Source of the DNA: Minisyncoccota bacterium
Lineage (GTDB): Bacteria > Patescibacteriota > Minisyncoccia > UBA9983
NCBI GenBank assembly: GCA_041648395.1
Contig: JBAZPC010000002.1
Location: 29,181-93,180 of the forward strand
Direction: 5' to 3'
DNA: 64,000 bases
This document shows, one piece after another, positions 21,894 through 63,851 of the stretch. Below the pieces are notes generated by a model. It ran no database searches. It saw only the letters and a program-made list of their open reading frames with translations, and was not told the origin of the DNA. Numbering within the stretch: the first letter of the stretch is position 1; every line of letters starts with the position of its first letter. Both the position numbers and the translations under genes were made by a program.

Positions 21894-21906
21894 TTTTTTG
21901 GAGTTC

Positions 21907-21984
21907 CCTGCCCGCCATGCGAGCCGCCACGCCCGACTTCGCAAGATGAAGTCGTTGCGGGCGGGCAGGCGAGGCAGGCGGGGA
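21907..21984. repeat. GC-rich palindromic element (CCCGCC...GGCGGG family), nested hairpins
   Basis: cctgcccgcc...ggcgggcagg termini are reverse complements with an inner hairpin. It lies immediately 3' of tRNA-Gly in an otherwise AT-rich genome. Confidence 0.6.
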
Positions 21985-22167
21985 TTCTCCCTGTCCGCAC
22001 CAGACAGGAAAAGTCAAAGAGTTTTGGTTCGCCTCGCTTCGCTCGGCGACTAATTTGTATTGGATTTTGGGGGTAAAAACGAATTGGCGATTCTGCATTT
22101 TGGGGGAAGAAAATTTTTTAATCATAAAGTCGAAATAAATTATTATTAACTATACTATAATGCACAT

Positions 22168-22725
22168 ATGAACAAAACTATTAAATATGCGGGTGTCGCT
22201 GGAATACTTTCTCTAATATTTGTCGTTCCAGTAACGTTTTTTGAAATTCTTAAGAGCTTGAACAAACTTGATGGTGGTTTCACATCGGTATACATTTTTG
22301 TTCTCCTCATATCATTGATTTTGTACATTGTTTTCATACATGGCTTTAAACTTGTTGCGGAAAAATATCAAAATAATTTATTGAGAATATCGTCTTATAT
22401 TTTGATAATTTCTGCCATAGTTTATTACGGCTATTTAGTGCTCACTTTAATTTCTCCAAACCTAGACAATATTGTGATCCAAATTTTGGCCGCAGTAATC
22501 TTTGGAGCAGCAAATATCCCATTCGGGATTGCTTTATTAAAACTAAAGCCACAATTTGGTTCTCTCGCCACTGGTGCAGGCGTTGTAGAAATAATTACAG
22601 GTGTCAGTCTTTTATCGGTTATATTGTCAATCGTTGGAATTTTACTACTCATACCTCTTTATATTTTAACGTCAATGATTTTGTTTCGAGCAGCTAAAAA
22701 AATCGAAACAACTCCAGCAATCTAG
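22168..22725 (+). CDS. Polytopic membrane protein, unknown function
   Basis: 185 aa with about 6 TM helices. Confidence 0.4.
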   Translation: MNKTIKYAGVAGILSLIFVVPVTFFEILKSLNKLDGGFTSVYIFVLLISLILYIVFIHGFKLVAEKYQNNLLRISSYILIISAIVYYGYLVLTLISPNLDNIVIQILAAVIFGAANIPFGIALLKLKPQFGSLATGAGVVEIITGVSLLSVILSIVGILLLIPLYILTSMILFRAAKKIETTPAI

Positions 22726-23040
22726 TTAATCTCTGAATTGCTTTTATTGAATGCCGCCAAAGAAAAACTTGAAATTGTCAGCAGTGCGGCTCCGCCGTCT
22801 TTCCGAATTTTCGCGGGGGGAATTCCTCGCCGCCTGCGGCGAAATGCGTTCGGACTAATTCAAGAATCCCGCATTCAAATCAAAACCTGCAAACAAAATT
22901 TTCCTTGGTGTTCCGCTCTGAACAAGCAGGCGGAGGTTCCCCTAGCTTCACCGCTCGGACGGCGGGGCGGAAGGAGGTTGGGGGAGGAATGGAAATCCAC
23001 AGGGGTTGACTCGTTGTGCTTTCCAGACTTGTGCTATAAT

Positions 23041-23817
23041 ATGAACATTATGGAAATACTTATTTGGCCGATGGTTGGTTTCGTGTTTTTCCTCGTCCTA
23101 TTTGGATTGAGGATAGTTGATCAATATGAGCGCGGAGTTGTGCTTACTCTTGGTAAATACACAGGAACGCGTTCGCCCGGTTTGACGTGGATTCTAATTG
23201 GAATTCAGAAAATGACCAAAGTTGATTTGCGTATCACCACTACCGACATACCACAGCAAGAAGTTATCACAAAAGATAATGTTCCCGTCGGTATCAACGC
23301 GGTAGTATACTTCCAAGTTCAAAATGCCGAGCAGGCTGTTTTAACTATAAAAGATTACACGCTCGCGGTTTCCCAATACGCGCAGGCAGCACTTCGAGAT
23401 GTTATCGGCAGTATTGAACTTGACTCGCTTTTGTCGGAAAGAGAAAAAAATGCCGAAGAAATCCAAAAGATTGTTTCCCAAGCAACGGGGTCTTGGGGTA
23501 TTTTGGTTACTGATATTAAAATCCAAGACATAGAACTTCCAGCAGATATGAAGCGCATCATGGCAAAGCAAGCGGAGGCAGAACGTGAACGCCGAGCAGT
23601 TATCATCAAGGCAGAAGGAGAATTTGCAGCGTCAGAGCGACTTGCTCAAGCGGCTGGTGTCTTAAGTAGTACGCCGGGTGGTATTTCAATGAGAACTCTA
23701 CAAACAATAGAGAAAATAAATCCCGATCCTTCCAAGACGGTTATCTTTGCTTTGCCGGTTGAGTTTTTTGAAGGAATAAAAAGCCTCTCGAAATATTTTA
23801 ATGAAAAACAAAAGTAG
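23041..23817 (+). CDS. SPFH/band-7 (stomatin/prohibitin-like) domain protein
   Basis: N-terminal TM then ...DLRITTTDIPQQEVITKDNVPVGINAVVYFQV...AEAERERRAVIIKAEGEF. The start is trimmed to ATG 23041 because the upstream in-frame stretch is GC-rich noncoding-like. An extended -10 tgctataat sits directly upstream, so the mRNA is possibly leaderless. Confidence 0.8.
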   Translation: MNIMEILIWPMVGFVFFLVLFGLRIVDQYERGVVLTLGKYTGTRSPGLTWILIGIQKMTKVDLRITTTDIPQQEVITKDNVPVGINAVVYFQVQNAEQAVLTIKDYTLAVSQYAQAALRDVIGSIELDSLLSEREKNAEEIQKIVSQATGSWGILVTDIKIQDIELPADMKRIMAKQAEAERERRAVIIKAEGEFAASERLAQAAGVLSSTPGGISMRTLQTIEKINPDPSKTVIFALPVEFFEGIKSLSKYFNEKQK

Positions 23818-23820
23818 TTG

Positions 23821-24630: not shown

Positions 24631-24714
24631 TATATTAGATTTAGACGAATTTTGCCAATTGTTTCGGTGAAAAAAGAAAAGAAGCCCGCGAGGTAGCCGC
24701 CAGAAAGACATAAA

Positions 24715-24750
24715 AAACAAAAAACCCTCGACACAAGCTCGGGGTTTTTT
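24715..24750. terminator. Hairpin aaaaaccctcgacacaagctcggggtttttt downstream of hup
   Basis: GC stem flanked by A and T runs. The loop motif cgacaagctcgggg recurs at 44462-44496 and in-frame at 49811-49840. Confidence 0.6.
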
Positions 24751-24795
24751 GTTTTTCCTAGCTAGAAAAAAATTATTTGACTGCAAGCAGTGAGT

Positions 24796-25068: not shown

Positions 25069-25073
25069 AAATT

Positions 25074-25155
25074 GAGTATTTAGTAGCCAGTATTTTAGTA
25101 GCCAGTATTTTTTAAAAAATTATTCTGACTACTCTTTACTGATTACTGATTACTA
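25074..25155. repeat. Heptamer/15-mer repeat block (agtagccagtatttt x2 plus an inverted ctgactact...tactgattactgattact), intergenic hup-rny
   Basis: It has direct and inverted copies of the same family. Confidence 0.75.
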
Positions 25156-25221
25156 TTATTAATTTTCGACCTGTTATTATATGGCTCTATTATATAGATT
25201 GGCCTTTTTAATGCAATACCC

Positions 25222-27395: not shown

Positions 27396-27405
27396 AAGAT
27401 AAATC

Positions 27406-30831: not shown

Positions 30832-30838
30832 CTGTTTT

Positions 30839-40884: not shown

Positions 40885-40899
40885 ATAATTAAGTATAAA

Positions 40900-40926
40900 G
40901 CAGTCAGTATTCAGTAGCCAGTATGT
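40900..40926. repeat. Heptamer repeat (agtcagt attcagt agccagt), intergenic yebC / RM gene
   Basis: Same family, different context. Confidence 0.7.
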
Positions 40927-44333: not shown

Positions 44334-44520
44334 GTTCTCCCCCCGCTCTTGCGAACGGGGGGCGAGGCCGAAGCCACTTGTGCTTTTATCTTATATCTTT
44401 AACCCCCCGAAGTCAATCCTTTGTGGGTAAACCCCGCCACTCGCGAGTGGCGGGGTAAACAAAAAACCGCCCTTCGACAAGCTCGGGGCGGTTTTTCTCA
44501 GATCAACCCCGCCGAAGCGG
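44334..44520. terminator. Cluster of four consecutive GC hairpins downstream of cspA
   Basis: The four hairpins are ccccccgctcttgcgaacgggggg, ccccgccactcgcgagtggcgggg, aaccgcccttcgacaagctcggggcggtt and ccccgccgaagcgggg. Confidence 0.6.
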
Positions 44521-49756: not shown

Positions 49757-50212
49757 ATGAAAATTTCTGTTTCAAAAAAGCAGACGAGTAAAATAGCCAA
49801 AGAATTAGCAAAAACCCTTCGACAAGCTCAGGGTAAAAAATTTTTCAACAAAGCTGTTGTTATTGGTCTGTCCGGCGAACTCGGTAGCGGGAAGACGGCT
49901 TTCTGCCAAAGTTTCGCGAAGGCGCTGGGTGTGAAAGAAAAAGTTCACAGCCCAACATTTGTAATTATGAAAAAGTATCCAGTAGTCAGTAGCCAGTATT
50001 CAGTATTATTTCACTTTGATATGTACAGAATTAAAAATCAAAAAGACATTATTACTCTCGGTTGGAAAAAAATAATTTCTGATTCCAGAAACATAATTTT
50101 AGTTGAGTGGGCGGAAAATATCAGAAAAGTTTTTCCCAAAAAACATTTTTGGATAAAAATGTCCCATCTGGGCAAAAAAAGCAGAGGTATTGACATTAAA
50201 TCCGTAAAATAG
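49757..50212 (+). CDS. tsaE: tRNA threonylcarbamoyladenosine biosynthesis protein TsaE
   Basis: P-loop GLSGELGSGKT, HSPTF and HFDMYR motifs. It carries two in-frame repeat insertions: TLRQAQG (49811-49840) and VVSSQYSV (49981-50007). Confidence 0.75.
   Translation: MKISVSKKQTSKIAKELAKTLRQAQGKKFFNKAVVIGLSGELGSGKTAFCQSFAKALGVKEKVHSPTFVIMKKYPVVSSQYSVLFHFDMYRIKNQKDIITLGWKKIISDSRNIILVEWAENIRKVFPKKHFWIKMSHLGKKSRGIDIKSVK
49811..49840. repeat. Hairpin-unit repeat aaaacccttcgacaagctcagggtaaaaaa, in frame in tsaE
   Basis: It encodes TLRQAQGKK. The same cccttcgacaagctcgggg core forms terminator hairpins at 24715-24750 and 44461-44496. Confidence 0.6.
49981..50007. repeat. Heptamer tandem repeat (agtagtcagtagccagtattcagtatt), in frame within tsaE
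   Basis: It encodes the VVSSQYSVL segment. Confidence 0.8.
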
Positions 50213-50995: not shown

Positions 50996-53900
50996 ATGAA
51001 AAAAATTATGAATAAAAATTTAATATTGTTTTCAGGGCTGATAATTTTAGTCGGAGTTTTGGCGCCAACAGTTTTTGCGCAGGCCGCGTATTTTAATACT
51101 GACCCATCGGATCATCCAATATTAAGGGTTGCCAACGCCACAAAAAATCCTTTTTGCACCAGTTGCTGGAATTCAACGGTCACGGCCGATGCCGGCGACA
51201 TTGTTGATTTTGATATTTATTACCACAACACGTCCAGTGAGAAAGCCATTCAGACAATGGTCAACGCCATTCTTCCGTCCGGCAGTTCAAACTCTTTTAC
51301 GGTTTCTGGCAGTGTTTGGGCGCAAAACGCTTCCATGATAAGCGGTTCCGCTCTTATCAATCTTACTTCAAGCCAAAGCTTGTCGTTTATTCCCGGCTCT
51401 GTCAGATGGTATCCCAATCAATCGGCGTCTTTTTCTCCGCTTCTTAACGGGCAGTCCGGCGCTGAAATTATCACTGCGTCCGGTTTGAATATCGGCGACA
51501 TCGCCGCGGGATGGAGCACTCAAGGCCATGTTGTTTTTGGAGTTCAGGTGAGCGGCAGCCCAAATCCTCCTCCCTCGTCTCCTACGGTTTCTATTTCTGC
51601 CTCTCCGAATCCCGTTAATTATAATTCCACAACAAACTTAACATGGTCCTCAACCAATGCCACTTCATGTACCGCTTCCGGCGGATGGTCTGGAACAAAA
51701 GCGACTTCTGGTTCTGAAACAACCGGTTCTCTTGCAAGCGCCCAAACCTACACCCTCACCTGCACGGGCTCTGGCGGAACGACTTCAAATAGCGTTACTG
51801 TCAACGTTAATCAACAACAGGGCCAAGCGCCGACAGTGAACACAAACTCTGCCACCAATGTCGGGCAAATTTCAGCCACTCTTAATGGCTCAATCAATCC
51901 CAATTCCAGCGCCGCTAACGTCTGGTTTGAATGGGGAACAACGCAATCAAGTTTAACTAACACTATCACTTACGGCGGAATCGGCGCAGGCGCTTCGGCT
52001 GTCAACGCCTCCATGACGGTTTCCGGCCTCAACCAGAACACCACTTACTATTTTCGCGCTGTCGCGCAAAACTCCTTTGGCACCGTTCAAGGCCAGATTT
52101 TGAGTTTTACCACAGGAGGTGGAGGGGGAACTGGTTTACCGACAATCACCACAAATCCTGCCACCAACATTGTCCAAACTTCCGCTGACCTTAACGGCGC
52201 CGTCAATCCGAACGGCAGCAATACTAACGCTTGGTTTGAATATGGCACTACCCAATCATTTGGCAGCACCACCACCCAGGTTTCTCAAGGTTCGGGTTCT
52301 TCTAATATTAATTTCGTCAGAAACATTACTGGTCTTCAAAACAACACTACTTATTATTATAGGGCCATTGCTCAAAATTCTTTTGGAACGGTAAACGGTT
52401 CAACGCTTAATTTCACAACTTCTAGCGGTGGCGGGGGAGGGGGAGGAGGCGGTAGCCTCCCTGTTGTAAATACAGGGGATGCGTCAAATATTACAGACAC
52501 ATCCGCGGTATTAAAAGGTTATGCTAACCCCAATAACAGCGATACGAACGCGTGGTTTGAATGGGGTAGGGCTGTCGATGGTCTTGTTAATGTCACAAAT
52601 CAGCAGAATGTAGGGGGCGGAACTTCTTATGTGTCATTTCTTTCTGGTATAACAGGACTCACTTCTGGAACTGTTTATGTTTATCGCGCTGTCGCTCAAA
52701 ATGCCGCTGGCACGGCCTTTGGTTCTACTTTGAGTTTTACAGCCACTGGAGGTGGCGGCGGTGGCGGAGGAGGCGGTGGCGGAGGAGGCGGCTCTTGTTT
52801 GCCTATTGTCACAACTAATTCTGCCAGCTTTATAACCAAGGATTCAGCAACCTTAAGGGGACTTGTGAATCCGCAAGGCCGTTCAACAAGCGGTTGGTTT
52901 GAATATGGCAAATCATACGCTTTAACAAACAGAACTGAATCGCAAACAGCCGGCAGCGGTTCGGTTGATACCGATATATTAAAATATCTCGCCAGCATTG
53001 AATCAAATACCAGCTATTATTTCAGGACCGTGGCTCAAAATAATTGCGGTTCGGCGTACGGCAGTATTGTGAGTTTTACCACAGGGCTTGGCAACGGTAA
53101 TCCGCCGGAAGTCATAACTTTAGCGGCAACAAACATAACTCAAACATCAGCCACCATAAACGGAAACGTTAATCCCAATAATTATGACGTCTCGGCGTGG
53201 TTTGAATGGGGGACAAATCCGACTTTATCAGCTTATACTATTACCCCTACGTCAAATCTCGGCTCGGGAAATTTGTTTAAAGCGATAAGTTCAATGCCTT
53301 ACGGCTTGGCGAACAATTCTGTTTATTATTATCGCGCCGTTGCCCAGAATACCTTTGGCGTCGCGCGCGGAACAATCTTAAATTTTACAACTGGGAAAGT
53401 AGAAGCTCCTATCCCCGGTGTCAGTTTTTCTGTCTGGAAAGAAACAAAAAATCTTTCCTTTCCCAACGGCACGATTTATGTTAATTCATCTTCTATCGGC
53501 GATACGTTGGAATTTTCTCTAAACATAAAAAACAAAAGCTCTGACACATTAAGAAATATCATTGTGAAAGACAAAATTTCTTCTTACTTTGATTTCGTGG
53601 AATCAAGCCCCGGAATCAGTTCTAATTCCTCAGGGAATTCATTGGCGTGGAACATAGATTCTGTTGCTTCGGGGGATACAAAAACAATTACTTTTAAAAT
53701 TAAAACAAAAACTGTTGAGGAAAGCGTTGTTATTTCCAACAACTTCACAATCACTGCCGGCGGAATCACCAGAACATCAAACAGCACGACAAACATTCTT
53801 AACCCTTCTTTGATGGCGCTGGATATAGGCGTTGACAAAGACAACGTCAAGAAAAACGAGACGTACAATTATACCGTTAGGTACAGGAATATCGGAATCG

Positions 53901-54322
53901 CGGACGTTGACAATGTTTTGCTCAAAATAATTTTGCCGCAGAATGTCACCCTGAAAGATTCCCAGCCCAACTACGCCACCGCGGAGAAAAATATTCTCTT
54001 TTACAAAATCGGGAGAGTAAATAAAAACGAAAAAGGAACGATTGACATAAGCGTAAAAGTGAGCGACTCTGCCGAAAGCGGAGAAAAGTTGATTGCTACT
54101 GCTGTTCTTGATTACACCGACGCCTTTGGCGCGTCCCAGCCGAATATTTCTGCCTCAGTCACATCTGTCGTGGAGTCCGGATTCTTTGGCACTGCCGCGG
54201 CGCTTGGTTTTTCCTTTGGTGGTTCAAACTTCGGATTCTATCTTTTGTCGGCGCTCTTGCTGGCCGTCATCGGAGTGGTTGTCTACATCCGCCTTAAAGT
54301 TTCCAAGATGTTGAAAGTGTAA
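50996..54322 (+). CDS. Giant cell-surface protein: signal peptide, about 8 tandem ~95-aa repeats joined by poly-Gly linkers, DUF11-like C-terminal repeats, C-terminal TM anchor
   Basis: The repeated unit is TNxATNIxQTSAxLNGxVNPNGSxTNAWFEYGTT...YYYRAVAQNSFGT.G..L.FTT. Linkers are GGGGGGG (GGN codon runs, for example at 52747-52797). The C-terminus is FYLLSALLLAVIGVVVYI. Confidence 0.7.
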   Translation: MKKIMNKNLILFSGLIILVGVLAPTVFAQAAYFNTDPSDHPILRVANATKNPFCTSCWNSTVTADAGDIVDFDIYYHNTSSEKAIQTMVNAILPSGSSNSFTVSGSVWAQNASMISGSALINLTSSQSLSFIPGSVRWYPNQSASFSPLLNGQSGAEIITASGLNIGDIAAGWSTQGHVVFGVQVSGSPNPPPSSPTVSISASPNPVNYNSTTNLTWSSTNATSCTASGGWSGTKATSGSETTGSLASAQTYTLTCTGSGGTTSNSVTVNVNQQQGQAPTVNTNSATNVGQISATLNGSINPNSSAANVWFEWGTTQSSLTNTITYGGIGAGASAVNASMTVSGLNQNTTYYFRAVAQNSFGTVQGQILSFTTGGGGGTGLPTITTNPATNIVQTSADLNGAVNPNGSNTNAWFEYGTTQSFGSTTTQVSQGSGSSNINFVRNITGLQNNTTYYYRAIAQNSFGTVNGSTLNFTTSSGGGGGGGGGSLPVVNTGDASNITDTSAVLKGYANPNNSDTNAWFEWGRAVDGLVNVTNQQNVGGGTSYVSFLSGITGLTSGTVYVYRAVAQNAAGTAFGSTLSFTATGGGGGGGGGGGGGGGSCLPIVTTNSASFITKDSATLRGLVNPQGRSTSGWFEYGKSYALTNRTESQTAGSGSVDTDILKYLASIESNTSYYFRTVAQNNCGSAYGSIVSFTTGLGNGNPPEVITLAATNITQTSATINGNVNPNNYDVSAWFEWGTNPTLSAYTITPTSNLGSGNLFKAISSMPYGLANNSVYYYRAVAQNTFGVARGTILNFTTGKVEAPIPGVSFSVWKETKNLSFPNGTIYVNSSSIGDTLEFSLNIKNKSSDTLRNIIVKDKISSYFDFVESSPGISSNSSGNSLAWNIDSVASGDTKTITFKIKTKTVEESVVISNNFTITAGGITRTSNSTTNILNPSLMALDIGVDKDNVKKNETYNYTVRYRNIGIADVDNVLLKIILPQNVTLKDSQPNYATAEKNILFYKIGRVNKNEKGTIDISVKVSDSAESGEKLIATAVLDYTDAFGASQPNISASVTSVVESGFFGTAAALGFSFGGSNFGFYLLSALLLAVIGVVVYIRLKVSKMLKV

Positions 54323-54377: not shown

Positions 54378-54404
54378 TGTTATAATATATGCTACAATGC
54401 CATT

Positions 54405-55284: not shown

Positions 55285-55299
55285 TCAAAACCGAAAGAT

Positions 55300-57495
55300 G
55301 TGAATGCGGAAAGGAAAAATTTGGTTCTCATTGACGCTCACGCGGTTTTGCATCGCGCCTTTCACGCGCTGCCGAATTTCACTTCGTCGTCCGGCGAGCC
55401 GACGGGCGCGCTCTACGGCTTTTCCGCTTTTCTCATAAAAATAATAAAGGAACTAAAACCCGATTACATCGCCGCCTGTTATGATTTGCCTCAGCCGACT
55501 TTTCGTCACGCCGCCTATGAAAATTACAAAGCGCAGAGGCCGAAGATGGATGACATTCTGGCGAAGCAGATAAACCGCTCGCGCGACATTCTCAATGCGT
55601 TTGAAATTCCAATTTACGATTCGCCCGGCTTTGAAGCGGACGATATACTCGGCACTATCAGCCATCAACTATCAGCTTTTAGTCATCAGCTTAAAATTAT
55701 TATCGCTTCCGGTGATTTGGATACATTGCAACTGGTGAGCGATGATGATGTTGTCGTTTATACTTTGAGCAAGGGAATAAAAGAGGCGGTCATATACGAC
55801 GAGAAAGCAGTTAAAGAACGTTATGGCTTCGGTCCGGAGTTAGTGCCAGATTTTAAGGGACTGAAAGGAGACCCGTCTGATAATATTATCGGCGTCAAAG
55901 GAATAGGCGAGAAGACGGCGACAGAACTCATAAAAAAATTCGGCACCATTGAAAATTTATACAAAGAAATTAAAAAGGACTCAGAGATATTAAAAAAAGA
56001 AGGATTCAAACCGAAGGCGATAGAAGTTTTAAAGGAAAACGAGGAGGAGGCGCTTTTCAGCAAGACCTTGGCGGAGATTAGGCGCGACGCGCCGATAAAA
56101 TTTTCTTTGGAAGGCAGCGCGTGGAAAGAATCGTTTGACATTGAAAAAGCAAAATCGCTTTTCGGCGAATTCGGTTTCAGGAGTTTGATTGGCAGAATTG
56201 GCGAGCAAAATTTCCCAAAAGAAAAAGAGGCGCCCAAACCAGAAAATTCGCTTTTTGAAAGATTCAAGGGCCAAGTGCCGGAAAAATTGTTCAACGAGAT
56301 AGAACAACCTCTTGCGGGAATTATTTCCGAGATGGAAAAAACAGGCATTCTTCTTGATATCGCTTATTTGAAAAAATTATCAAAAGATTACCACGGCGAA
56401 CTGGAAAAACTTGAGAAAAAAATATGGAAATTGGCTGGACGGGAATTCAACATTAATTCGCCGAAGCAACTGGGAGAAATCATTTTTGATAAACTGGGAT
56501 TGAAAACAAAAAATCGTTCCACGGACGCCGGAGAATTGGCAAAACTGAAGGGCGCGCACCCTATCATAGAAGAAATCGTTTCTTATCGCGAGCTGGCTAA
56601 ACTTCTTTCAACTTATGTTGACACCTTGCCGAAGTTGGCGGACAAAAACGGCCGGCTGCACACGACCTTTGACCAGGCAGGCACGACCACGGGCAGAATT
56701 TCTTCAAAAAATCCCAATCTCCAAAACATTCCCAAGCGCACGGAGTTGGGAAGAAACGTGCGAAGGGCGTTCATCGTGGACAAAGGGTTCAAGTTAGTGA
56801 GTTTTGATTATTCGCAGATTGAATTGAGAGTGCTGGCGATTTTAAGCGAAGACAAAAAGCTTTTGGAAGTTTTCAAGAAAAATGAGGATGTGCATGATAC
56901 TGTCGCCTCTGAAGTTTTCGGAGTTCCCAAAAACAAAGTTACAGCAGAAATGAGAAGGCGAGCCAAAGTAATAAACTTCGGAATCATTTATGGCATGGGC
57001 ATTAACGCGCTAAAAATGAATCTTGAAACGACAAAAGAGGAAGCGCAGAAATTTTACGACGAATACTTTGCGCACTTCAAAGGCGTGGCGGATTACATTA
57101 AAAGGGTGAAAGAGGACGCCCGCAGAAAGGGCTTCACTGAAACTTTGTTCGGGAGAAAAAGATATTTTCCGGAAATAAAATCTTCTCTTGAATACGTGAG
57201 AAAAGAAGCGGAGCGCATGGCAGTGAACGCGCCGCTGCAAGGCACGGCGGCGGATTTTATTAAATTAGCCATGGTAAGAATAAACGAGGCGCTGGAAAAG
57301 AAGTCGTTAAAATCAAAAGCGCGCCTGCTCTTGCAAATCCATGACGAACTTGTTTTTGAAATAGAAGAGAAAAGTATTTCTGAAATAGCGCCGGAAATAA
57401 AGAAAATTATGGAAAGCGTCTATGAAGGCGATATACCCATGGAGACCCGCGTTGTTGCGGGAAAAAATTGGGAGGATATGGTAGAATGCAAATAA
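55300..57495 (+). CDS. polA: DNA polymerase I (5'-3' exonuclease + polymerase; no obvious 3'-5' exonuclease)
   Basis: FEN-like N-terminus (LIDAHAVLHRAF, GVKGIGEKTA) and Pol A motifs (DYSQIELR, KVINFGIIYG, HDELVFE). Confidence 0.95.
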   Translation: MNAERKNLVLIDAHAVLHRAFHALPNFTSSSGEPTGALYGFSAFLIKIIKELKPDYIAACYDLPQPTFRHAAYENYKAQRPKMDDILAKQINRSRDILNAFEIPIYDSPGFEADDILGTISHQLSAFSHQLKIIIASGDLDTLQLVSDDDVVVYTLSKGIKEAVIYDEKAVKERYGFGPELVPDFKGLKGDPSDNIIGVKGIGEKTATELIKKFGTIENLYKEIKKDSEILKKEGFKPKAIEVLKENEEEALFSKTLAEIRRDAPIKFSLEGSAWKESFDIEKAKSLFGEFGFRSLIGRIGEQNFPKEKEAPKPENSLFERFKGQVPEKLFNEIEQPLAGIISEMEKTGILLDIAYLKKLSKDYHGELEKLEKKIWKLAGREFNINSPKQLGEIIFDKLGLKTKNRSTDAGELAKLKGAHPIIEEIVSYRELAKLLSTYVDTLPKLADKNGRLHTTFDQAGTTTGRISSKNPNLQNIPKRTELGRNVRRAFIVDKGFKLVSFDYSQIELRVLAILSEDKKLLEVFKKNEDVHDTVASEVFGVPKNKVTAEMRRRAKVINFGIIYGMGINALKMNLETTKEEAQKFYDEYFAHFKGVADYIKRVKEDARRKGFTETLFGRKRYFPEIKSSLEYVRKEAERMAVNAPLQGTAADFIKLAMVRINEALEKKSLKSKARLLLQIHDELVFEIEEKSISEIAPEIKKIMESVYEGDIPMETRVVAGKNWEDMVECK

Positions 57496-57496
57496 T

Positions 57497-57877
57497 ATGG
57501 CGAAAGAATCAATTTTAATAGTAGAAGACGACAAGTTTTTCAGGGACTTGGTCTCAAAAAAGCTTGAAAAGAACGGCTTTGAAATGCTTTTGGCCGCCGA
57601 CAGCAAGGAGACGCTTACCCTTTTGGAAGAAAAAAAGCCGTCTCTCATAATTTCAGACCTGATTCTCCCTGGGCTGGACGGCTTTGAACTTATTTCTATT
57701 ATAAAAAAAGACGAAAAGACCAAAGACATACCCGTGATAGTTTTAAGCAACCTTGGGCAAAAAGAAGAAATAGAGAGGGCAATGTCGTTGGGCGCGATTG
57801 ATTTTATGGTCAAAGTGAATTTTACACCAGATGAGATTGTGGAAAAAATCAAAAGGGTCTTAAGCGGAAGGATTTAG
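57497..57877 (+). CDS. Stand-alone response-regulator receiver (REC) domain protein
   Basis: ILIVEDD...D (phospho-acceptor ISDLILPGLDG)...K pattern. 126 aa. Confidence 0.8.
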   Translation: MAKESILIVEDDKFFRDLVSKKLEKNGFEMLLAADSKETLTLLEEKKPSLIISDLILPGLDGFELISIIKKDEKTKDIPVIVLSNLGQKEEIERAMSLGAIDFMVKVNFTPDEIVEKIKRVLSGRI

Positions 57878-57882
57878 GAGCC

Positions 57883-58647
57883 ATGATATATCTTCTTTAT
57901 GGAAAAGATGCAGTGAAGAGCAGACAGAAGTTAAATGAGCTTCTGTATTTTTTTCGTTCCAAAGACAGCAATGTTTCTATTTTTAAAATTGACGAATACG
58001 ATTTTGAAAAAGAAAAACTAGAAGAGCTGTCCCGTTCCAGCACGCTTTTCGGTGGAAAGGTGGTTGTGGTATTCAATAGGATATTTGACGACAAAAATAT
58101 TTCAAAAATTATTCTGGAAAATTTGGACGTGTACGCCGCTTCCAAAAATATTTTTATTTTTTATGAGGAAGAAGTGGACGACAAAAATTTTGATTTAATC
58201 AAAGAAAAAGCGAAGAAAGTTCAGAAATTTAATCTGCCTGCAGGTAGGGAACTAAAAACAAGTAAATTTGGCGGAAAGGACTACGGCGACTATAATCCCT
58301 TTCTTATCTGCGACGCCGTCGGCGAGAAAAATAAAAAAAAGGCGTGGCTTTTATTCCAAGATGCGCTTTTTAAAGGCGTGCCGGCGGAGGAAGTTTTTTG
58401 GAAAATTTGGTGGCAGGCAAAGACAATGCTTTCCGTTAAAATCGCGTCCGATGCGGGAGTAAAAAATCTTGAAAAGGAAACTGGCTTTCATCCGTATGTG
58501 GTAAAGAAAAATCTCGGCTTCTTGAGAAATTTCAGCTTCAAAGAACTTGATATTTTTTCCTGGAAACTCGTGGAGCTTTATCACAACGCCCGCCGTGGCC
58601 TGGCCGATTTCGAAATCGGCTTGGAGAAAATTTTAGTTAACTTTTAA
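57883..58647 (+). CDS. holA: DNA polymerase III delta-subunit-like protein (HolA-like, short)
   Basis: N-terminal MIYLLYGKDAVKSRQKLNEL pattern of delta subunits. 254 aa. Confidence 0.5.
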   Translation: MIYLLYGKDAVKSRQKLNELLYFFRSKDSNVSIFKIDEYDFEKEKLEELSRSSTLFGGKVVVVFNRIFDDKNISKIILENLDVYAASKNIFIFYEEEVDDKNFDLIKEKAKKVQKFNLPAGRELKTSKFGGKDYGDYNPFLICDAVGEKNKKKAWLLFQDALFKGVPAEEVFWKIWWQAKTMLSVKIASDAGVKNLEKETGFHPYVVKKNLGFLRNFSFKELDIFSWKLVELYHNARRGLADFEIGLEKILVNF

Positions 58648-58675
58648 CTTTTATTATGTTAATATCATAAACAGC

Positions 58676-59047
58676 ATGGAAAAAATTAAAATTCTTGTCG
58701 TAGAAGACGACGACTTTTTTAGAGATACTGTTGCTAAAAGATTAGAACGGGAGGGGTTTGATGTGTCTTCTGCTGGGAACAGCAAAGAGGCGTTGGAAAT
58801 TTTAGAGACAAAAAAGCCAAACATTGTCTTACTAGACATAATTCTTCCCGGAATGGACGGCTTTGAACTTCTTTCTCTAATTAAGAAAACAGAGAGTATA
58901 AAGGACATTTCCGTAATGATTTTAAGTAATCTGGGTCAAAAACAGGACATTGAAAAAGCGCTTTCCTTGGGCGCGAAGGACTTTATGATTAAAGTGAATG
59001 TCAACTTGGATCAAATCGTAGAGAGAATTAAAAAAGAAATTTCTTAA
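58676..59047 (+). CDS. Second stand-alone REC-domain protein (paralog of 57497-57877, about 55% identical)
   Basis: ILVVEDDDFFRD...LLDIILPGMDGFELLSLIKK...LSNLGQKQDIEKALSLGAKDFMIKV. Confidence 0.8.
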   Translation: MEKIKILVVEDDDFFRDTVAKRLEREGFDVSSAGNSKEALEILETKKPNIVLLDIILPGMDGFELLSLIKKTESIKDISVMILSNLGQKQDIEKALSLGAKDFMIKVNVNLDQIVERIKKEIS

Positions 59048-59054
59048 TTTTTAA

Positions 59055-59075
59055 ATTGTCCGCCCGGCAGGATTC
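59055..59075. repeat. 21-bp direct duplicate of the tRNA-Lys 3' end (attgtccgcccggcaggattc), an att-like site
   Basis: Identical to 60787-60807, which comprises the 3' 17 nt of tRNA-Lys plus 4 nt downstream. Confidence 0.75.
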
Positions 59076-59128
59076 CCCGCCCGCCACGCAAGCCAAGCAA
59101 GCTTGTCTTGCTGGCGTTGCGGGCAGGG
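59076..59128. repeat. GC-rich palindromic element, copy A (cccgcccgccacgcaagccaagcaagcttgtcttgctggcgttgcgggcaggg)
   Basis: Its reverse complement matches 61163-61212 over about 49 nt. It is an internally imperfect palindrome. Confidence 0.75.
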
Positions 59129-59185
59129 AACCTCAAACAAATTACGCCCTCGCTTGGGTTAGCGGATTTTTTACTAATATTTATA

Positions 59186-59404
59186 TTATCTTTCTAGTTT
59201 GTTTATTTCTGCTGGCGATAAAAAATCTTCACACTCCTTTTTTAATTTTTCCTTTATTACATCTAACCCCTTCCATTCCTCGCGAGAAAGAGACAATTGT
59301 TCTTTGTCTTCAGTTTTAGTGGTTATTCTATATGCCCGAGTCCTTTTCTTAATATTTTCCCATTCTTTAAATAATCTTTCGCAATATTCTTGTTTATCTT
59401 CCAT
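59186..59404 (-). CDS. Hypothetical small protein
   Basis: 72-aa charged ORF inside the tRNA-Lys-associated module. Confidence 0.25.
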   Translation of the reverse strand: MEDKQEYCERLFKEWENIKKRTRAYRITTKTEDKEQLSLSREEWKGLDVIKEKLKKECEDFLSPAEINKLER

Positions 59405-59437
59405 AAATTTATTTTACCCTAATAGTAATAAAAAAAA

Positions 59438-59881
59438 TCAGACCATTTCTTTTTTTAGTTTATTGAAACAAATTTTTAGCTTTTCTAAAATAAAATTACT
59501 GCTAATTTGAGGGGGGTTTAATTTAAAATCTAATTTTCCGATTTTGCTAATTCCTAGAATCTTTCCGTGATGGACGCCGAAACACCTATGCCATTGGTAT
59601 ATTTTATTGGCTAAATCTATGTTTATACTAGAATAAGAACTAAGAAAATTTATAAACAATCTTTTTGAAGTTAAGCCGTTTTTAAATCTTGACAAGCCAT
59701 CGATATAACAAAGTGCTAAAATAATCTTTTCTTCTTCGTATTCTCCGCCTATTTTTTCAAGCTGTTTAATTTTAGTTTCATAATTATTAAACCATTTCTT
59801 AATTATTTCTTTGTCTGTCCCGGTCAAAAAACTTTTACGCCACATTCGGAACTCCTCTATATCCTTTTTATTTACTCTCAT
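59438..59881 (-). CDS. Hypothetical protein
   Basis: 147-aa ORF with no recognised motif. Confidence 0.3.
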   Translation of the reverse strand: MRVNKKDIEEFRMWRKSFLTGTDKEIIKKWFNNYETKIKQLEKIGGEYEEEKIILALCYIDGLSRFKNGLTSKRLFINFLSSYSSINIDLANKIYQWHRCFGVHHGKILGISKIGKLDFKLNPPQISSNFILEKLKICFNKLKKEMV

Positions 59882-59898
59882 TGTATTTTACCATTAAC

Positions 59899-60786
59899 TT
59901 AATTTGAAAGTCCGGGAAAAATTATTTGTGCCCTCAAAATTCTCGCCAAAGATTCTACTTTTCCTATTTTTGCAAATGTAGGTATTCCAACATAACAATT
60001 GCCCTTCGGGAAAATAGCTGCACCCCCAGAATTTCCATATTCAATCTTCGCAGAAGTAACATAATAATCTCCTTCGTAACCAGAAATAATACCTTCAGTG
60101 GCAGTAATACCCGTTTCTGTACCTATTCCTGGGTATCCCAATATAACAACACTCTCACCTAAAGAAAGCTGAGTATTACAAACCTGATAGTCGCCTCCTA
60201 TGTTATCAAGATATTTGTCGGGGCTGTTAATTTTGAGAGTTGCCCAGTCATATCCCTGAGACGAAAAAGCAATATTTTCAATAGCTACACTAATAATTTT
60301 GTTATAATTTGGAATTACAATCCTACAAAAATCCGGCCTATAAATAAAATCTTCAAAAACAACATGTCTGTTCGTAATAATACTAACTATAGCATTGTCG
60401 CCATAACCAAAAGTTGATAATATTCCTGAACCACTTTGTATATTGCTACCAAAATTACATTCAACATAAGCTATTTTATTTTTCCACTGTCGGATTATGT
60501 CCGGCAAATCATTTTTTGGTGTCTGCGCTTCTTTAATTATCGTTTTTTGAATAATTTGTGGTTTCTGATTTTTTAGCACCTCTACTTCTTGCCTTAACTT
60601 TTCAACTTCTAAGTCTTTCAGTCGTTGTGTTTCTTGTGCTATTTTTTCTTTCTCAATTTTTTCTGCTTGATATTTTTGGTATTGTTTAATACTAAAATAT
60701 CCTCCACCGCCCAAAACTAAAACGCCCGCAATGATTGCGATTAATATTGGTATTTGAATAAAACCTTTTTGATTTTTAATTCTCAT
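59899..60786 (-). CDS. Membrane-anchored trypsin-like (S1/S1-like) serine protease
   Basis: N-terminal TM plus coiled coil, with a C-terminal ...GYPGIGTETG...GNSGGA motif (the catalytic Ser context). Confidence 0.6.
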   Translation of the reverse strand: MRIKNQKGFIQIPILIAIIAGVLVLGGGGYFSIKQYQKYQAEKIEKEKIAQETQRLKDLEVEKLRQEVEVLKNQKPQIIQKTIIKEAQTPKNDLPDIIRQWKNKIAYVECNFGSNIQSGSGILSTFGYGDNAIVSIITNRHVVFEDFIYRPDFCRIVIPNYNKIISVAIENIAFSSQGYDWATLKINSPDKYLDNIGGDYQVCNTQLSLGESVVILGYPGIGTETGITATEGIISGYEGDYYVTSAKIEYGNSGGAAIFPKGNCYVGIPTFAKIGKVESLARILRAQIIFPGLSN

Positions 60787-60790
60787 ATTG

Positions 60791-60863
60791 TCCGCCCGGC
60801 AGGATTCGAACCTGCGACCCTCTCCTTAAAAGGGAGCTGCTCTACCAACTGAGCTACGGGCGG
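60791..60863 (-). tRNA. tRNA-Lys (anticodon TTT)
   Basis: Manual fold: acceptor CCGCCCG/CGGGCGG, D stem GCUC/GAGC, anticodon loop CUUUUAA, T stem GCAGG/CCUGC with loop UUCGAAU. Confidence 0.75.
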
Positions 60864-60868
60864 ATAAG

Positions 60869-61129
60869 TTACACTTCTGGAAGTATTTTTAATTTTAATC
60901 TATTTTTTAAAAATCTTCTACCAAATCCTGTCTTGAAATATTTCTCTCTTTTTAATGCTGATTGTTTATCTAAACACGCTTCATAATAAACTAATTCTAA
61001 TGGCCATCTATTTTTTGTGGCATCAACTAATCCATTACTATGTTCAATAAATCTTTGTTTCAGGTTTTCACTAAAACCAATGTAAAATTTTTTATCTTTT
61101 TGACTTTGAAGAATATACGTGTAAAACAT
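60869..61129 (-). CDS. Stand-alone GIY-YIG nuclease-domain protein
   Basis: FYTYILQSQKDKKFYIGFSENLKQRFIEHSNG...ELVYYE. The start is trimmed to MFYTY (61129) because the upstream in-frame extension is the GC palindromic element. Confidence 0.75.
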   Translation of the reverse strand: MFYTYILQSQKDKKFYIGFSENLKQRFIEHSNGLVDATKNRWPLELVYYEACLDKQSALKREKYFKTGFGRRFLKNRLKLKILPEV

Positions 61130-61162
61130 TAATTTTTTAAAAATAAATGACCAACTGACCGC

Positions 61163-61212
61163 GCCCGCAACGCCAGCAAGACAAGCTTGCTTGGCTTGCG
61201 TGGCGGGCGGGG
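61163..61212. repeat. GC-rich palindromic element, copy B (inverted relative to copy A)
   Basis: cccgcaacgccagcaagacaagcttgcttggcttgcgtggcgggcgggg is the reverse complement of 59079-59127. Confidence 0.75.
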
Positions 61213-61229
61213 CTACGGGCGGAATTTTT

Positions 61230-61724
61230 TTAAGTGTGCCGATCCGCCAAAACAAACGCGCTGTATGAGTCCGGTTTTATGATTGCCTCAAAGCCGAACC
61301 CTTTCACCATTCCCACCATGCCGTCAATGAAATCCTTGGTCGGGCCGTTTTTTCCCACATCAAGATGAACTTTTATTTTATTATTCCAAAAGAACTCCTC
61401 TCCTAATTTATCTTTTAATCTGCTTTTCAATTCCTGTACAAAAGTGATGGAATGCATTGTCTCTTTGTAAATCCTGTCGCGCAGGGTGGGGCAAAAAACT
61501 TTTTCCGTTTTTGACCAGAAATATCTTCCGCCGTTGCCGACTCTCAAAATGGCGATAGCTGTGACAAATTGAGTTTCGTTGGAACCTTGGGAATCGGAGC
61601 CGACGGTGATTTTGTATTTTGCCTCCGGCTTTTGATTGATATAATTTGCGATTTCCTCAATCAGTTCATCGAATTTGATGTGGCGTTTTAATGTTTCGTT
61701 GTAAAACTTTATATTATCAGACAT
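61230..61724 (-). CDS. DUF458/YkuK-like RNase H-fold protein (tentative)
   Basis: ...KITVGSDSQGSNETQFVTAIAILRVGNGGRYF... resembles the YkuK family. Confidence 0.4.
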   Translation of the reverse strand: MSDNIKFYNETLKRHIKFDELIEEIANYINQKPEAKYKITVGSDSQGSNETQFVTAIAILRVGNGGRYFWSKTEKVFCPTLRDRIYKETMHSITFVQELKSRLKDKLGEEFFWNNKIKVHLDVGKNGPTKDFIDGMVGMVKGFGFEAIIKPDSYSAFVLADRHT

Positions 61725-61729
61725 AAGAT

Positions 61730-62089
61730 TTATAGCGGCAGGTCAAAAGAATATATGCCGGGACCAAGCAATGCCAAACTGATACTTACGGCAACCATCA
61801 ATAACCTCAATATTTTTTCTTCCGTTTTGTTTGAAATAGTTATCAGAGAAACAATGGCGGCTACCTGCGTAAACATTCCGATTGCCAAAAAAATAGCCGA
61901 TAGAATTTCAATAACCCCGATAATTTTTTCTCTCTTTTCCGCTGATTTGAATAATTTATATCCAACTTGCAAAAGAATAACAGCTAAAATCACCCTCAAT
62001 ATCAAAGGAGCCACTTGGGAAAAATTTAAAAGTTCTGGAAATACGCTAAGCATATTCCCATTATAGGCATTAATACGACCGGGAGTCAA
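61730..62089 (-). CDS. DoxX-family membrane protein
   Basis: 119 aa with 3-4 TM helices and LRVILAVILLQVGYKLF. Confidence 0.5.
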   Translation of the reverse strand: MTPGRINAYNGNMLSVFPELLNFSQVAPLILRVILAVILLQVGYKLFKSAEKREKIIGVIEILSAIFLAIGMFTQVAAIVSLITISNKTEEKILRLLMVAVSISLALLGPGIYSFDLPL

Positions 62090-62921
62090 TAATGTTGTTG
62101 TTTTGGTCGTAGAGGATTATTTTGTCATGCTCGTTGTTCCAAAGATTGTATTTTTTATTGAGATAAATTCTCCATTCTGGCTTAAAAAAATCAGAATCAC
62201 GTTTGTGCCGGTTGGCGCAATTATTGTAATTCAATCTATCATTAACATATTGTCTGCAGGCGTCGGTAAAAGAAGATGGTAAGGTGATATATTCCGTGCA
62301 GTTTTTAAAATTATTATTTATGTAATCAATGCAGGCGTTGTCCAGCGTTGCCGGCAGAACCTCGTCTTTTATTGGGTCGGGACAGCTGCCGTAAATCGGC
62401 GGAATAAATGTTTGTAGCTGGTTGAAATATCCGGCGCATTTGTTTAGTTTAAAACTTATTCCTATAGGGCTTTCTCCGCTTGATATTATCGCTTTTTCTC
62501 CGGGAGCGAGAAGAATGTCGTCCAACGTGTTGTCTTGTCCGAGAAAGGGAACGAGGGCGCCTTTCCCTATTTTTATTCTTTCTCCGCCTTTTCCTTCAAG
62601 AGACCAACCGCTTATGTCCACCGAGTTTTTATTGGAAAAAGATGTTTGGATTGATATGAATTCTTTTTTTGGGTCATTTTCTTTTGTTTCAATGCCGGCT
62701 GACAAGTACACGGAGTCCTTTCCTGCGTATCCGCTGGAAGACCCGCCGCTTTGGTTTATCGGCGCTTTGATTTCCTCGGATATTTTATCCACCGGCGATC
62801 CAAAAAACAGTCCTTTTTCTCTCGGTTCTCTTGACGGGCCGCCGAAGGTTAGCCAAATAATAAAAACCGCCACAAAAAACAGAACAGCCCACATCAAGTC
62901 CTTTTTTACATGGTCTTCCAT
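62070..62921 (-). CDS. Secreted/membrane-anchored hypothetical protein with Cys-rich C-terminus
   Basis: N-terminal TM and several Cys in the C-terminal half. Confidence 0.35.
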   Translation of the reverse strand: MEDHVKKDLMWAVLFFVAVFIIWLTFGGPSREPREKGLFFGSPVDKISEEIKAPINQSGGSSSGYAGKDSVYLSAGIETKENDPKKEFISIQTSFSNKNSVDISGWSLEGKGGERIKIGKGALVPFLGQDNTLDDILLAPGEKAIISSGESPIGISFKLNKCAGYFNQLQTFIPPIYGSCPDPIKDEVLPATLDNACIDYINNNFKNCTEYITLPSSFTDACRQYVNDRLNYNNCANRHKRDSDFFKPEWRIYLNKKYNLWNNEHDKIILYDQNNNIIDSRSY

Positions 62922-62933
62922 AAAAAGATTATA

Positions 62934-63851
62934 TCACAGCCGCTGGTGAACAGGGCAGAAGTGCGCCGAGCGTCCGCCGATTCTTATTTTTTTAATAATG
63001 CCGCCGTCGCGCCTTTTGCATTTTTCTCCCGTTTGCTGGTAGGCGTAATGCATTTCTTGATAATGACCTTTTCTGCCGTGGGCGTCGCGATAATCAATAT
63101 AAGAACTGCCGCGCGCTTTAATGGCTTTTTTGAGAATCGGTTTGACGGCGCTGTAAATTTTTTTCAGTTCCACTTCTTTCAGCTTATTCGCCGGCTTCAA
63201 GGGGTGCGCGCCGGCCATCCATAAAATTTCATCGGCGTAGATGTTGCCAATGCCGGCGATGAGCGTTTGGTCCATCAAAACGATTTTAATTTTACCCGAT
63301 TTTTTCCCTATCAACTCTTTAAATTTTACAAAAGTTAATTTCTTATCTAATGCGTCAAGCCCCAGCCCAGCTAGTTCTTCTGGAATTTTTTCTGTTTCTA
63401 AAATAACCACTTTGGCGAATTTGCGCATGTCGCAGAGCGCCAGTTGCTTATTATTAGAAAGAAAAAATAAAAGATGTATGAAGCGATTTTCTGGGTCGCG
63501 AAGAGGACCGGGTTCAATAGAAATCCATTTTTGAGTTTTGAGACCCGTCTTGCCGTCGGGCAGGTTTGATTTTCCCCATTTCCCATATAGTAGGTGCCCT
63601 GTCATTTTTTGATGCACTAAAATTGTTTTACCGCCACCGCGCCCGCCACGCTTCGCTGGCGATGCGGGCGGGGACAAATAAATCAAAATATTTTTCCCGC
63701 GCCGTTCTAATTTCAAAATCTTCTTACTGGCCGTTTCTTTTTTAATTTTTTTCGCGCTGAAAAAATCACTCCAAACATCCCGGATTTTCAATTCGGGCAA
63801 AACTTTTTTCAGGTCATTTACGATTGTCTCAACCTCTGGCAGTTCCGGCAT
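62934..63851 (-). CDS. mutM: Formamidopyrimidine-DNA glycosylase (Fpg/MutM) carrying an in-frame GC-palindromic-element insertion
   Basis: MPELPEVET N-terminus (catalytic Pro2, Glu3), H2TH and a C-terminal zinc finger (CPVHQRL...CxxC). The GC element at 63638-63673 is translated as the LSPPASPAKRGGRGGGKT segment. Confidence 0.85.
   Translation of the reverse strand: MPELPEVETIVNDLKKVLPELKIRDVWSDFFSAKKIKKETASKKILKLERRGKNILIYLSPPASPAKRGGRGGGKTILVHQKMTGHLLYGKWGKSNLPDGKTGLKTQKWISIEPGPLRDPENRFIHLLFFLSNNKQLALCDMRKFAKVVILETEKIPEELAGLGLDALDKKLTFVKFKELIGKKSGKIKIVLMDQTLIAGIGNIYADEILWMAGAHPLKPANKLKEVELKKIYSAVKPILKKAIKARGSSYIDYRDAHGRKGHYQEMHYAYQQTGEKCKRRDGGIIKKIRIGGRSAHFCPVHQRL
63638..63673. repeat. Short GC-rich palindromic element (cgcccgccacgcttcgctggcgatgcgggcgggg), in frame within fpg
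   Basis: It shares termini with the 59076 and 61163 elements. See the fpg feature. Confidence 0.7.

Follow-up and report, generated by a model that had tools for sequence, protein, structure and literature searches.

Introduction

The closest described counterparts of the repeats reported here include the Rickettsia palindromic elements (RPE), which are roughly 100-150 nucleotides (nt) long. In this work, we analyzed four GC-rich hairpin elements, A to D, in a 64,000-nt stretch of contig JBAZPC010000002.1 (hereafter, the window) from the assembly GCA_041648395.1 of a Minisyncoccota bacterium, a representative of the candidate phyla radiation (CPR). According to our analysis, B, C and D, with A as a more distant relative, are probably copies of a short, GC-rich, imperfectly palindromic selfish element that occurs across the CPR, is coupled to a cassette of a GIY-YIG gene and a tRNA gene, and may be mobilized by GIY-YIG activity. 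Like RPE, these are short palindromic selfish repeats of reduced genomes that lie in frame within protein genes and also in non-coding DNA and RNA genes. They differ in belonging to an unrelated host phylum, in being very GC-rich in a genome of 40% GC, in their spread over many candidate phyla, in the GIY-YIG/tRNA coupling, and in their far smaller size of 36-62 nt. The first-pass annotation of the window, made from the sequence alone, had drawn the parallel with RPE; it holds for the behavior, given the in-frame copies in many CPR genes, while its host, a Paceibacterota MAG (metagenome-assembled genome), and its length would place the CPR element outside the RPE family, as an analogue.

Hairpins that keep conserved mismatches or bulges and insert with no target duplication are characteristic of the IS200/IS605 insertion sequences (IS) and of repetitive extragenic palindromic (REP) systems. 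The CPR element resembles REP sequences and IS200/IS605 ends as a short imperfect GC-rich palindrome with conserved irregularities, which leaves no target duplication, adjoins a small nuclease gene, which B and C of the window flank in inverted orientation, and has many solitary copies. However, its partner is a UPF0213-like GIY-YIG protein instead of a Y1 HUH transposase, no conserved GTAG-type head was established, and the copies are not extragenic only, ten of them lying in open reading frames (ORFs). Since no Y1 transposase domain was found in the ten ORFs scanned around B, C and D and the distribution is not extragenic, the element does not belong to the systems of REP sequences with their associated tyrosine transposases (RAYT). 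Miniature inverted-repeat transposable elements (MITE) such as Correia/NEMIS are likewise short, non-coding and multi-copy, have an inverted-repeat structure and may lie within transcription units. In contrast, the CPR element is much shorter, its recurrent neighbor is a GIY-YIG gene, and neither a target-site duplication (12 junctions) nor a parent IS or transposase partner was found; therefore, it is not a MITE.

GC-rich palindromes are also found in mitochondria, where the GC clusters of yeast are mobile and the PstI palindromes of Neurospora flank tRNA genes. These are similar in residing in AT-richer genomes, near tRNA genes and occasionally in frame (yeast var1), but they are organellar and unrelated in sequence, and we know of no GIY-YIG/tRNA cassette architecture described for them.

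Phage T4 carries a free-standing GIY-YIG homing gene, segB, in a tRNA gene cluster (PMC2330249). The genes considered here likewise adjoin tRNA genes or lie in their midst, and relatives differ by presence, absence and replacement, a pattern suggestive of homing in which the flanking tRNA sequence is co-converted. The CPR protein differs in having only 78-90 aa, comprising the catalytic domain alone, and the cassette differs in bearing an intact tRNA, in leaving split remnants of the resident one, and in being accompanied by a dispersed hairpin family. Lacking a DNA-binding domain, the protein is not a typical homing endonuclease. The nearest published work describes group I introns in CPR tRNA genes (PMC13011429). 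Among the insertion sequences of CPR rRNA genes, those encoding GIY-YIG proteins are unlike group I/II introns, and the short ORF-less ones were left unexplained (PMC11270868). Full-text literature searches revealed no description of the element or of GIY-YIG/tRNA cassettes in the CPR.

Hairpin elements of the window

The exact limits of A-D (Table 1) were set from the tRNA sequence and from the empty sites of orthologues. The motif GCCCGCCACGC-N(4-34)-GCGWTGCGGGC matches the window three times, at B, C and D, and was absent from all of 100 dinucleotide-preserving shuffles. A family hidden Markov model (HMM), trained on copies from other genomes and then run on the window, also recovered these three. 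The family of four members proposed in the first-pass annotation is thus supported for B, C and D, while the membership of A, a composite hairpin, is doubtful given its score. The arms of B and C at 59075-59124 and 61163-61212 are complementary over 50 nt at 100%, with a spacing of 2038 nt, which bears out the reverse complementarity noticed earlier over about 49 nt. Element D corresponds to B with a shortened apex (CCCGCCACGC-TTCG-CTGGCGATGCGGGC vs. CCCGCCACGC-AAGCC...TCTTG-CTGGCGTTGCGGGC).

The hairpin potential ascribed to all four sites was borne out by folding, which was stronger than in shuffled sequences (z = -2.1 to -5.4, the lowest value being that of A). With a local GC content of 72-82% against 40.4% window-wide, the sites are among the sharpest GC peaks of the window, as had been observed, and the genome described as AT-rich is so only moderately (40% GC). 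The element contains no stop codons in any frame. At gathering thresholds, Rfam recognized five tRNAs in the window and gave no match on the hairpins. The terminator scan called neither B nor C, and no T-run follows either of them; therefore, they are not classical terminators. The hairpin cluster at 44334-44520, previously taken for simpler relatives, was rejected as part of the family: the HMM gave no signal there, the cluster is sited between convergent ORFs, and two of these ordinary terminator-like hairpins were called by the terminator scan. An independent Logan contig (L002) terminates within element C, which may be an assembler break at the repeat.

Insertion of element D in fpg

Element D is located within the fpg/mutM ORF and is read through in frame, as reported in the first-pass annotation. 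The closest Fpg orthologues have 281-287 aa and 74-78% identity, and in an alignment of 30 sequences the segment PPASPAKRGGRG between YLS and GGKTIL is present only in the window protein. At the nucleotide level, TTG TCA GGT GGC AAA of the orthologues stands against TTG TC/CCCGCCCGCATCGCCAGCGAAGCGTGGCGGGCGCGG/T GGC GGT AAA in the window (slashes mark the junctions). Element D is a clean in-frame insertion, without duplication, of 36 nt, which adds 12 aa and not about 14 as estimated before; the inferred empty site is TTGTC/TGGCGG. The orthologues lack exactly these 36 nt, and the segment is hence not an old feature shared by Fpg proteins. Judging from the sequences, the fpg copy is a lineage-specific insertion.

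In the AlphaFold2 model of Fpg (mean predicted local distance difference test score, pLDDT, of 79.7), residues 61-74 form a coil that separates strand 54-59 from strand 75-80. The pLDDT of the insert block, within this model alone, averages 65, compared with about 90 in the preceding blocks. The insert is accordingly modeled as a loop in a beta-hairpin. The region is identical in the ENA and Logan assemblies, and the 29-nt core of D recurs without changes in L109 and L117.

Five other CPR Fpg orthologues (P0010, P0023, P0055, P0094, and P0113) carry different in-frame inserts resembling GC palindromes in other loops, with peptides such as LKPARRQG, LPAGRQA, PTRQAGLPAGRQAS and PPSLNLPVRQAGL. 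Since these inserts differ, the phenomenon is wider than one family, which suggests that further hairpin families behave alike.

Distribution of the family across CPR genomes

The first-pass annotation had raised the question of copies beyond the window, and many were found in other genomes and in metagenome contigs. A pattern scan of one genome per species matched at least 120 loci. Matches in loci of at least 56% GC were non-palindromic chance matches; about 50 true palindromes of 36-62 nt in lower-GC loci were recognized among the matches listed. The family has the ends CCCGCCCGCCACGC...GCGTTGCGGGCRGG in an imperfect palindrome, and the consensus of the lower-GC palindromes is CCCGCCCGCCACGCAAGCC(A/GA)GCTTGC(T/GA)GGCGTTGCGGGCRGG. 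Among the matches listed, the palindromes belong to metagenome-assembled genomes (MAGs) labeled as Patescibacteria group, Saccharibacteria, Levyi-, Davies-, Roizman-, Gottesman-, Falkow-, Komeili-, Berkel- and Doudnabacteria, and Paceibacterota, and some low-GC MAGs labeled Gammaproteobacteria or Bdellovibrionales match too; overall, at least 10 CPR candidate phyla are represented. In the IMG/VR scan, which addressed a possible carriage by phages, eight of the nine matches were chance ones in high-GC contigs and one (L145) was a true palindrome.

Identical variants of 36-54 nt recur in MAGs of different candidate phyla, and the exact variant of B was found in three other metagenome contigs with two distinct flanking contexts. 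The element is, as far as can be read from these sequences, copied with high fidelity, near-identical copies being present in MAGs of many candidate phyla. Several MAGs gave two to six loci, and L057 contains three copies within 2.4 kb. The latter, from a Saccharibacteria MAG, are located at 344-983 in one putative hydrophobic ORF of 444 aa.

The apical part occurs in 31 distinct variants, all of which are self-complementary, with compensatory changes in L057, L110, L128 and L005. It supports two overlapping alternative helices, and no single structure could be settled. Covariation of the basal stem (RNAalifold) is uninformative because the search pattern fixed those bases.

In low-GC MAGs labeled Gammaproteobacteria (L008 at 6431-6472, L014, and L117), the element is nested: the loop that holds it belongs to a different palindromic repeat, ATTCCCGC...GCGGGAAT or ATTGCGGG...CCCGCAAT. 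Insertion into the loops of other hairpins as a rule was rejected, since nesting was limited to these three loci and flank complementarity was at the control level (see below).

Insertion mode and in-frame copies

The copies reside in intergenic DNA, in fragments of tRNA genes, and in protein-coding genes. No target-site duplication was found at the 12 junctions that could be read exactly, 11 by comparison with an intact tRNA copy (including L059 and L074) and one with the inferred fpg empty site. In L110, an unverified copy, GGAATCAG appears on either side.

Among the ten copies within ORFs, seven are in genes with a Pfam match (glycosyltransferase, GATase_5, TsaD, Competence (ComEC), TatD, class II aminoacyl-tRNA synthetase, where the copy is in the OB fold, and Memo), one is in fpg, and two are in long putative ORFs. 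Every genic copy has a length divisible by three (36, 42 or 45 nt; 10/10), compared with 14/42 of the others (Fisher p = 1.2e-4; lengths taken from junctions of known empty sequence), and the commonest variant, of 44 nt, is never genic. The genic copies add a read-through segment of 12-15 residues. This bias is the outcome expected of a selection filter acting on random insertions, and the exclusive presence of such lengths in genes argues for translation and against excision.

Coupling to GIY-YIG and tRNA genes

The first-pass annotation overlooked the tRNA-fragment setting of A, B and C, the coupling to GIY-YIG/tRNA cassettes, and the spread across the CPR. In the window, B interrupts the 3' remnant of an older tRNA-Lys gene at position 56/57, in the T-loop, and C interrupts the 5' remnant at 12/13, in the D-arm. 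Compared with the intact tRNA-Lys, the 3' remnant is identical at 17/17 and 6/7 nt (GAATCCTGCCGGGCGGA being positions 57-73), and the 5' remnant at 12/12 and 9/9 nt (TCCGCCCGTAGC being positions 1-12 and TCAGTTGGT 13-21). Each remnant thus bears one hairpin, in inverted orientation to the other, and between the two there are a GIY-YIG ORF, the intact tRNA-Lys, a protease gene and two small ORFs. The suppressor "tRNA-Stop (tta)" called by ARAGORN at 60790-60863, and in the related contig L003 at 7010-7083, was rejected as a register error of one base, because the anticodon loop CUUUUAA is that of tRNA-Lys(UUU). Element A, 12 nt downstream of tRNA-Gly(UCC), is flanked by GGAGTTC and GATTCTCC, which look like halves of a T-arm split at 56/57.

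The GIY-YIG ORF encodes the catalytic domain alone, with no separate DNA-binding domain in its 86 aa, and its sequence shows the YTY, YIG, Arg and Glu motifs. Its homologues form more than 1600 clusters and have the same organization, mostly with 78-90 aa and starting with MFYTY..., and the nearest solved structure is 1ZG2. We take the UPF0213/YhbQ type to represent the same branch of GIY-YIG proteins as the structure-specific nuclease Slx1. Element C had been considered as a possible part of this protein; it sits 30 nt upstream of the true start codon and is hence non-coding.

GIY-YIG ORFs 60-72% identical to that of the window were found by tblastn within about 50 nt of a hairpin in nine of the loci retrieved by the pattern (L050, L067, L056, L020, L085, L060, L054, L027, and L079), and L125 represents a tenth such locus, with 73% nucleotide identity. 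A tRNA called by ARAGORN lies directly downstream of the ORF in eight of the nine and in L125; in L079, the GIY-YIG ORF is followed by a tRNA 5' sequence, with no intact tRNA called. These tRNAs are Val, Lys-CUU, Lys-UUU, Asn, Met, Gln or Leu. In loci with the order hairpin, GIY-YIG, tRNA, the same tRNA is repeated upstream of the GIY-YIG ORF from position 1 up to about 16-32, and this partial copy carries the hairpin at 7/8, 9/10, 12/13 or 21/22, in one orientation or the other; in those with the order GIY-YIG, hairpin, tRNA, the hairpin abuts the tRNA 5' end. A tRNA gene is present within 400 nt of 18 of 51 copies.

As the first GIY-YIG loci had been obtained via the hairpin search, an unbiased sample was drawn via protein similarity. 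A hairpin was present in all four of the distinct loci on long contigs selected in this way, and in three it belonged to the family. L128 consists of a tRNA-Asn 5' fragment with a hairpin, GIY-YIG and tRNA-Asn; L131, of GIY-YIG, a hairpin and tRNA-Lys; and L129, with tRNA-Thr, has a divergent, unscored hairpin at 12/13. In L130, the 5' part of an old tRNA-Val with a B-like hairpin is followed by GIY-YIG, a new tRNA-Val whose acceptor stem differs, and the 3' part of the old tRNA-Val, a layout shared with the window. At about 1771-1900 of L130, an 18-nt inverted repeat (GCCCGCCCACCTTTGGGC / GCCCAAAGGTGGGCGGG) brackets the cassette tRNA-Val, and it would lengthen the acceptor stem in a precursor transcript.

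Public GIY-YIG annotations are often stretched to 100-130 aa by the stop-free upstream hairpin, sometimes together with the tRNA fragment. The extended ORFs include that of the window (60869-61255) and those of P0121, P0127-P0134, P0144, P0155, P0173, P0189, P0217, P0225, and P0230. Among 16 over-long annotations, at least 12 begin with read-through peptides of the hairpin (PPATQ..., PARHAS..., RPPRKP...).

At the syntenic site of L003, the cargo block with the protease, the 147-aa and the 72-aa ORFs is missing; the same tRNA-Lys 5' fragment is present with a GIY-YIG protein just 35% identical and with unrelated GC hairpins. The fact that both differ at the same site suggests replacement by a cognate nuclease/hairpin pair, as which the GIY-YIG and hairpins of L003 may be regarded. 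These hairpins, GGGCCGACGCCCCGACCTCGCGTCGGGGGTCGGCC and CCCGACCCCGAAGGGCGTCGGG, lie at 6676-6756 within the tRNA-Lys 5' fragment; the Fpg of L003 is 74% identical to that of the window.

Table 1. Location of the hairpin elements, their host genes and other repeats in the window
Feature	Coordinates	Strand	Description
Element A	21907-21982	+	76 nt; long composite GC hairpin; weak relative of the family (HMM 14.6 bits, E 0.015)
fpg/mutM ORF, host of D	62934..63851	-	305 aa; Pfam Fapy_DNA_glyco and H2TH
Element D	63637-63672	+	36 nt; short variant in fpg (HMM 21.2 bits, E 1e-4)
tRNA-Lys 3' remnant	59059..59134	-	GAGGTTC (59134-59128) and GAATCCTGCCGGGCGGA (59075-59059); about positions 50-73
Element B	59076-59127	+	52 nt; CCCGCCCGCCACGC...GTTGCGGGCAGG; inserted in TTC/GAA of the T-loop (HMM 43.6 bits)
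Cargo block	59186..60786	-	trypsin-like protease (59899..60786), 147-aa ORF and 72-aa ORF
tRNA-Lys(UUU), intact	60791-60863	-	Rfam tRNA 71.2 bits; directly downstream of the GIY-YIG ORF
GIY-YIG ORF	60869..61129	-	86 aa, start ATG 61129; stand-alone, UPF0213/YhbQ-like; Pfam GIY-YIG PF01541, 3.7e-14
tRNA-Lys 5' remnant	61150..61223	-	TCCGCCCGTAGC (61223-61212) and TCAGTTGGT (61158-61150); positions 1-21
Element C	61159-61211	-	53 nt; core is the reverse complement of B (HMM 40.6 bits)
AT-rich heptamer-like repeats	264-303, 2264-2303, 15827-15878, 25117-25153, 40897-40924, 49972-50011		

Origin and mobility of the hairpins

Taken together, these results make it very likely that the hairpins are a selfish palindromic element spreading horizontally. 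For its movement, we propose a scheme in which the cassette would insert into a resident tRNA gene and split it: the GIY-YIG nuclease would cut, and the cassette with its own tRNA, as well as the solitary hairpins, would be copied in by homing-like repair. The hairpin would then serve both as the cis element of the nuclease and as its short non-autonomous partner, as REP sequences do for RAYT genes. We put forward only tentatively that the hairpins are mobilized by the GIY-YIG protein studied here. With similar reserve, the hairpin and the 78-90-aa GIY-YIG protein could be viewed as an undescribed two-component mobile system of the CPR, in which an Slx1/YhbQ-like structure-specific nuclease would use the GC hairpin as a cis-acting site, and the pair would invade tRNA genes with a replacement tRNA and scatter non-autonomous hairpins into genes across phyla.

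Several points weigh against this scheme. Nuclease activity, cleavage and transposition are all putative steps in it, and an 86-aa protein with no DNA-binding domain leaves the choice of site unexplained, just as the scheme does not explain why the hairpins concentrate at D-arm and T-loop positions of the tRNA remnants. Neither the position nor the orientation of the hairpin with respect to the GIY-YIG ORF is constant, and solitary copies make up the majority. At the junctions, no target consensus emerged, flank-to-flank complementarity was equal to that of the shuffled control (mean 2.08 vs. 2.12), and 6-mers of the CCGCCC/GGGCGG type were marginally enriched in the flanks (4/84 vs. 1.5%, p = 0.04). 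In addition, the basal 11+11 nt were fixed by the search pattern, and their apparent invariance is partly an artefact; the copies outside the window come from other genomes and contigs, the source genome being represented by the window alone.

These variable positions and orientations, together with the prevalence of solitary copies distant from any GIY-YIG ORF, would be expected if the hairpins were selfish but moved by another activity, such as a transposase of the Y1/RAYT or IS200/IS605 type or host replication and repair, and were near GIY-YIG genes because both target tRNA genes. The duplication-free insertion and the conserved mismatches and bulges, as in IS200/IS605 and REP, fit this explanation as well. 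Nevertheless, no Y1 transposase domain was found among the ten ORFs scanned at 55300-63851. The association with hairpins at all the protein-selected GIY-YIG loci, and in the over-long annotations, is tighter than a shared target preference predicts, and at the same site a different GIY-YIG subfamily is paired with a different hairpin (L003). We therefore regard another mover as somewhat unlikely.

An island between a tRNA 3' end and a copy of that end is the classical signature of tRNA-targeted integration. For B and A only, the tRNA 3' fragments might accordingly be remnants of attachment sites of integrase-mediated islands, with the hairpins as unrelated later arrivals: in the window, the tRNA-Lys 3' end and a 23-nt copy of it enclose a block that L003 lacks. 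However, the block contains no integrase, a 5' tRNA remnant is present on its opposite side, and L130 shows that GIY-YIG cassettes alone are able to leave both remnants, which makes such an origin unlikely.

It is also conceivable that the hairpins are functional stem-loops, which stabilize, process or regulate the mRNA of a GIY-YIG/tRNA transcription unit, and that the solitary copies result from cassette decay. A placement no more than about 50 nt from the GIY-YIG ORF, in its 5' leader or in the gap before the tRNA, is compatible with this function, as is the apical pairing preserved by compensatory changes. This explanation is quite improbable in view of the solitary copies inserted cleanly into conserved ORFs that bear no trace of a cassette, the occurrence of both orientations, and the absence of a T-run after B and C and of any Rfam match.

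Introns are a known feature of tRNA and rRNA genes in the CPR (PMC13011429, PMC11270868), and the insertion points in D-arm and T-loop (7/8, 9/10, 12/13, 21/22, and 56/57) might suggest that the hairpins are small introns, or intervening sequences, which would be excised from tRNA and mRNA transcripts. Yet in silico removal of the element at 51 copies yielded no tRNA spanning the junction, except in L054, where the element abuts an intact tRNA 5' end. What is left are just tRNA fragments with an intact copy of the same tRNA close by, and the constant divisibility by three of the genic copies would be needless if they were spliced out. As removal never restores a whole tRNA, the hairpins are not introns of working genes, and we consider this origin highly improbable. 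Finally, chance GC-rich hairpins or ordinary intrinsic terminators of convergent sequence, which the location of B between convergent genes and of A after a tRNA gene might suggest, are refuted by the absence of the motif from shuffled sequences, the identical 36-54-nt sequences in different candidate phyla, the lack of a T-run, and the copies inside ORFs.

Other repeats in the window

Three further kinds of repeats were noticed. An AT-rich family of tandem heptamer-like units (CAGTAGTCAGTA...) gave 14 matches at no more than one mismatch, compared with 0.03 expected. An ORF of 1108 aa at 50996-54322 contains repeats of about 309 nt with 70-82% identity, as well as glycine-rich GGnGGnGGn stretches. 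A 200-nt direct repeat, 71% identical (57655-57854 and 58834-59033), overlaps two ORFs with response-regulator receiver domains on either side of holA; at the holA position of the relative L003, there is a single response-regulator gene.

Biological significance

The architecture of hairpin, GIY-YIG gene and tRNA gene provides a testable candidate for a new mobility mechanism based on a nuclease and a hairpin. If this is true, the two-component system would be the GIY-YIG counterpart of the logic of REP/RAYT and IS200/IS605. Our analysis also explains a recurrent annotation error, in which GIY-YIG ORFs are extended through the hairpin and tRNA fragments are left unannotated. Moreover, an insert that is stop-free and filtered for lengths divisible by three could mark permissive loop sites in conserved proteins.

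The genomes of CPR bacteria (Patescibacteria) are among the smallest bacterial genomes. The near-identical elements of 36-54 nt and the 60-80% identical GIY-YIG genes shared across candidate phyla point to active DNA exchange within the radiation. Even these ultra-small genomes appear to tolerate a selfish repeat in essential genes, namely fpg, tsaD, an aminoacyl-tRNA synthetase gene and tatD, which, after Rickettsia, would be the second independent instance of protein-coding genes harboring selfish DNA.

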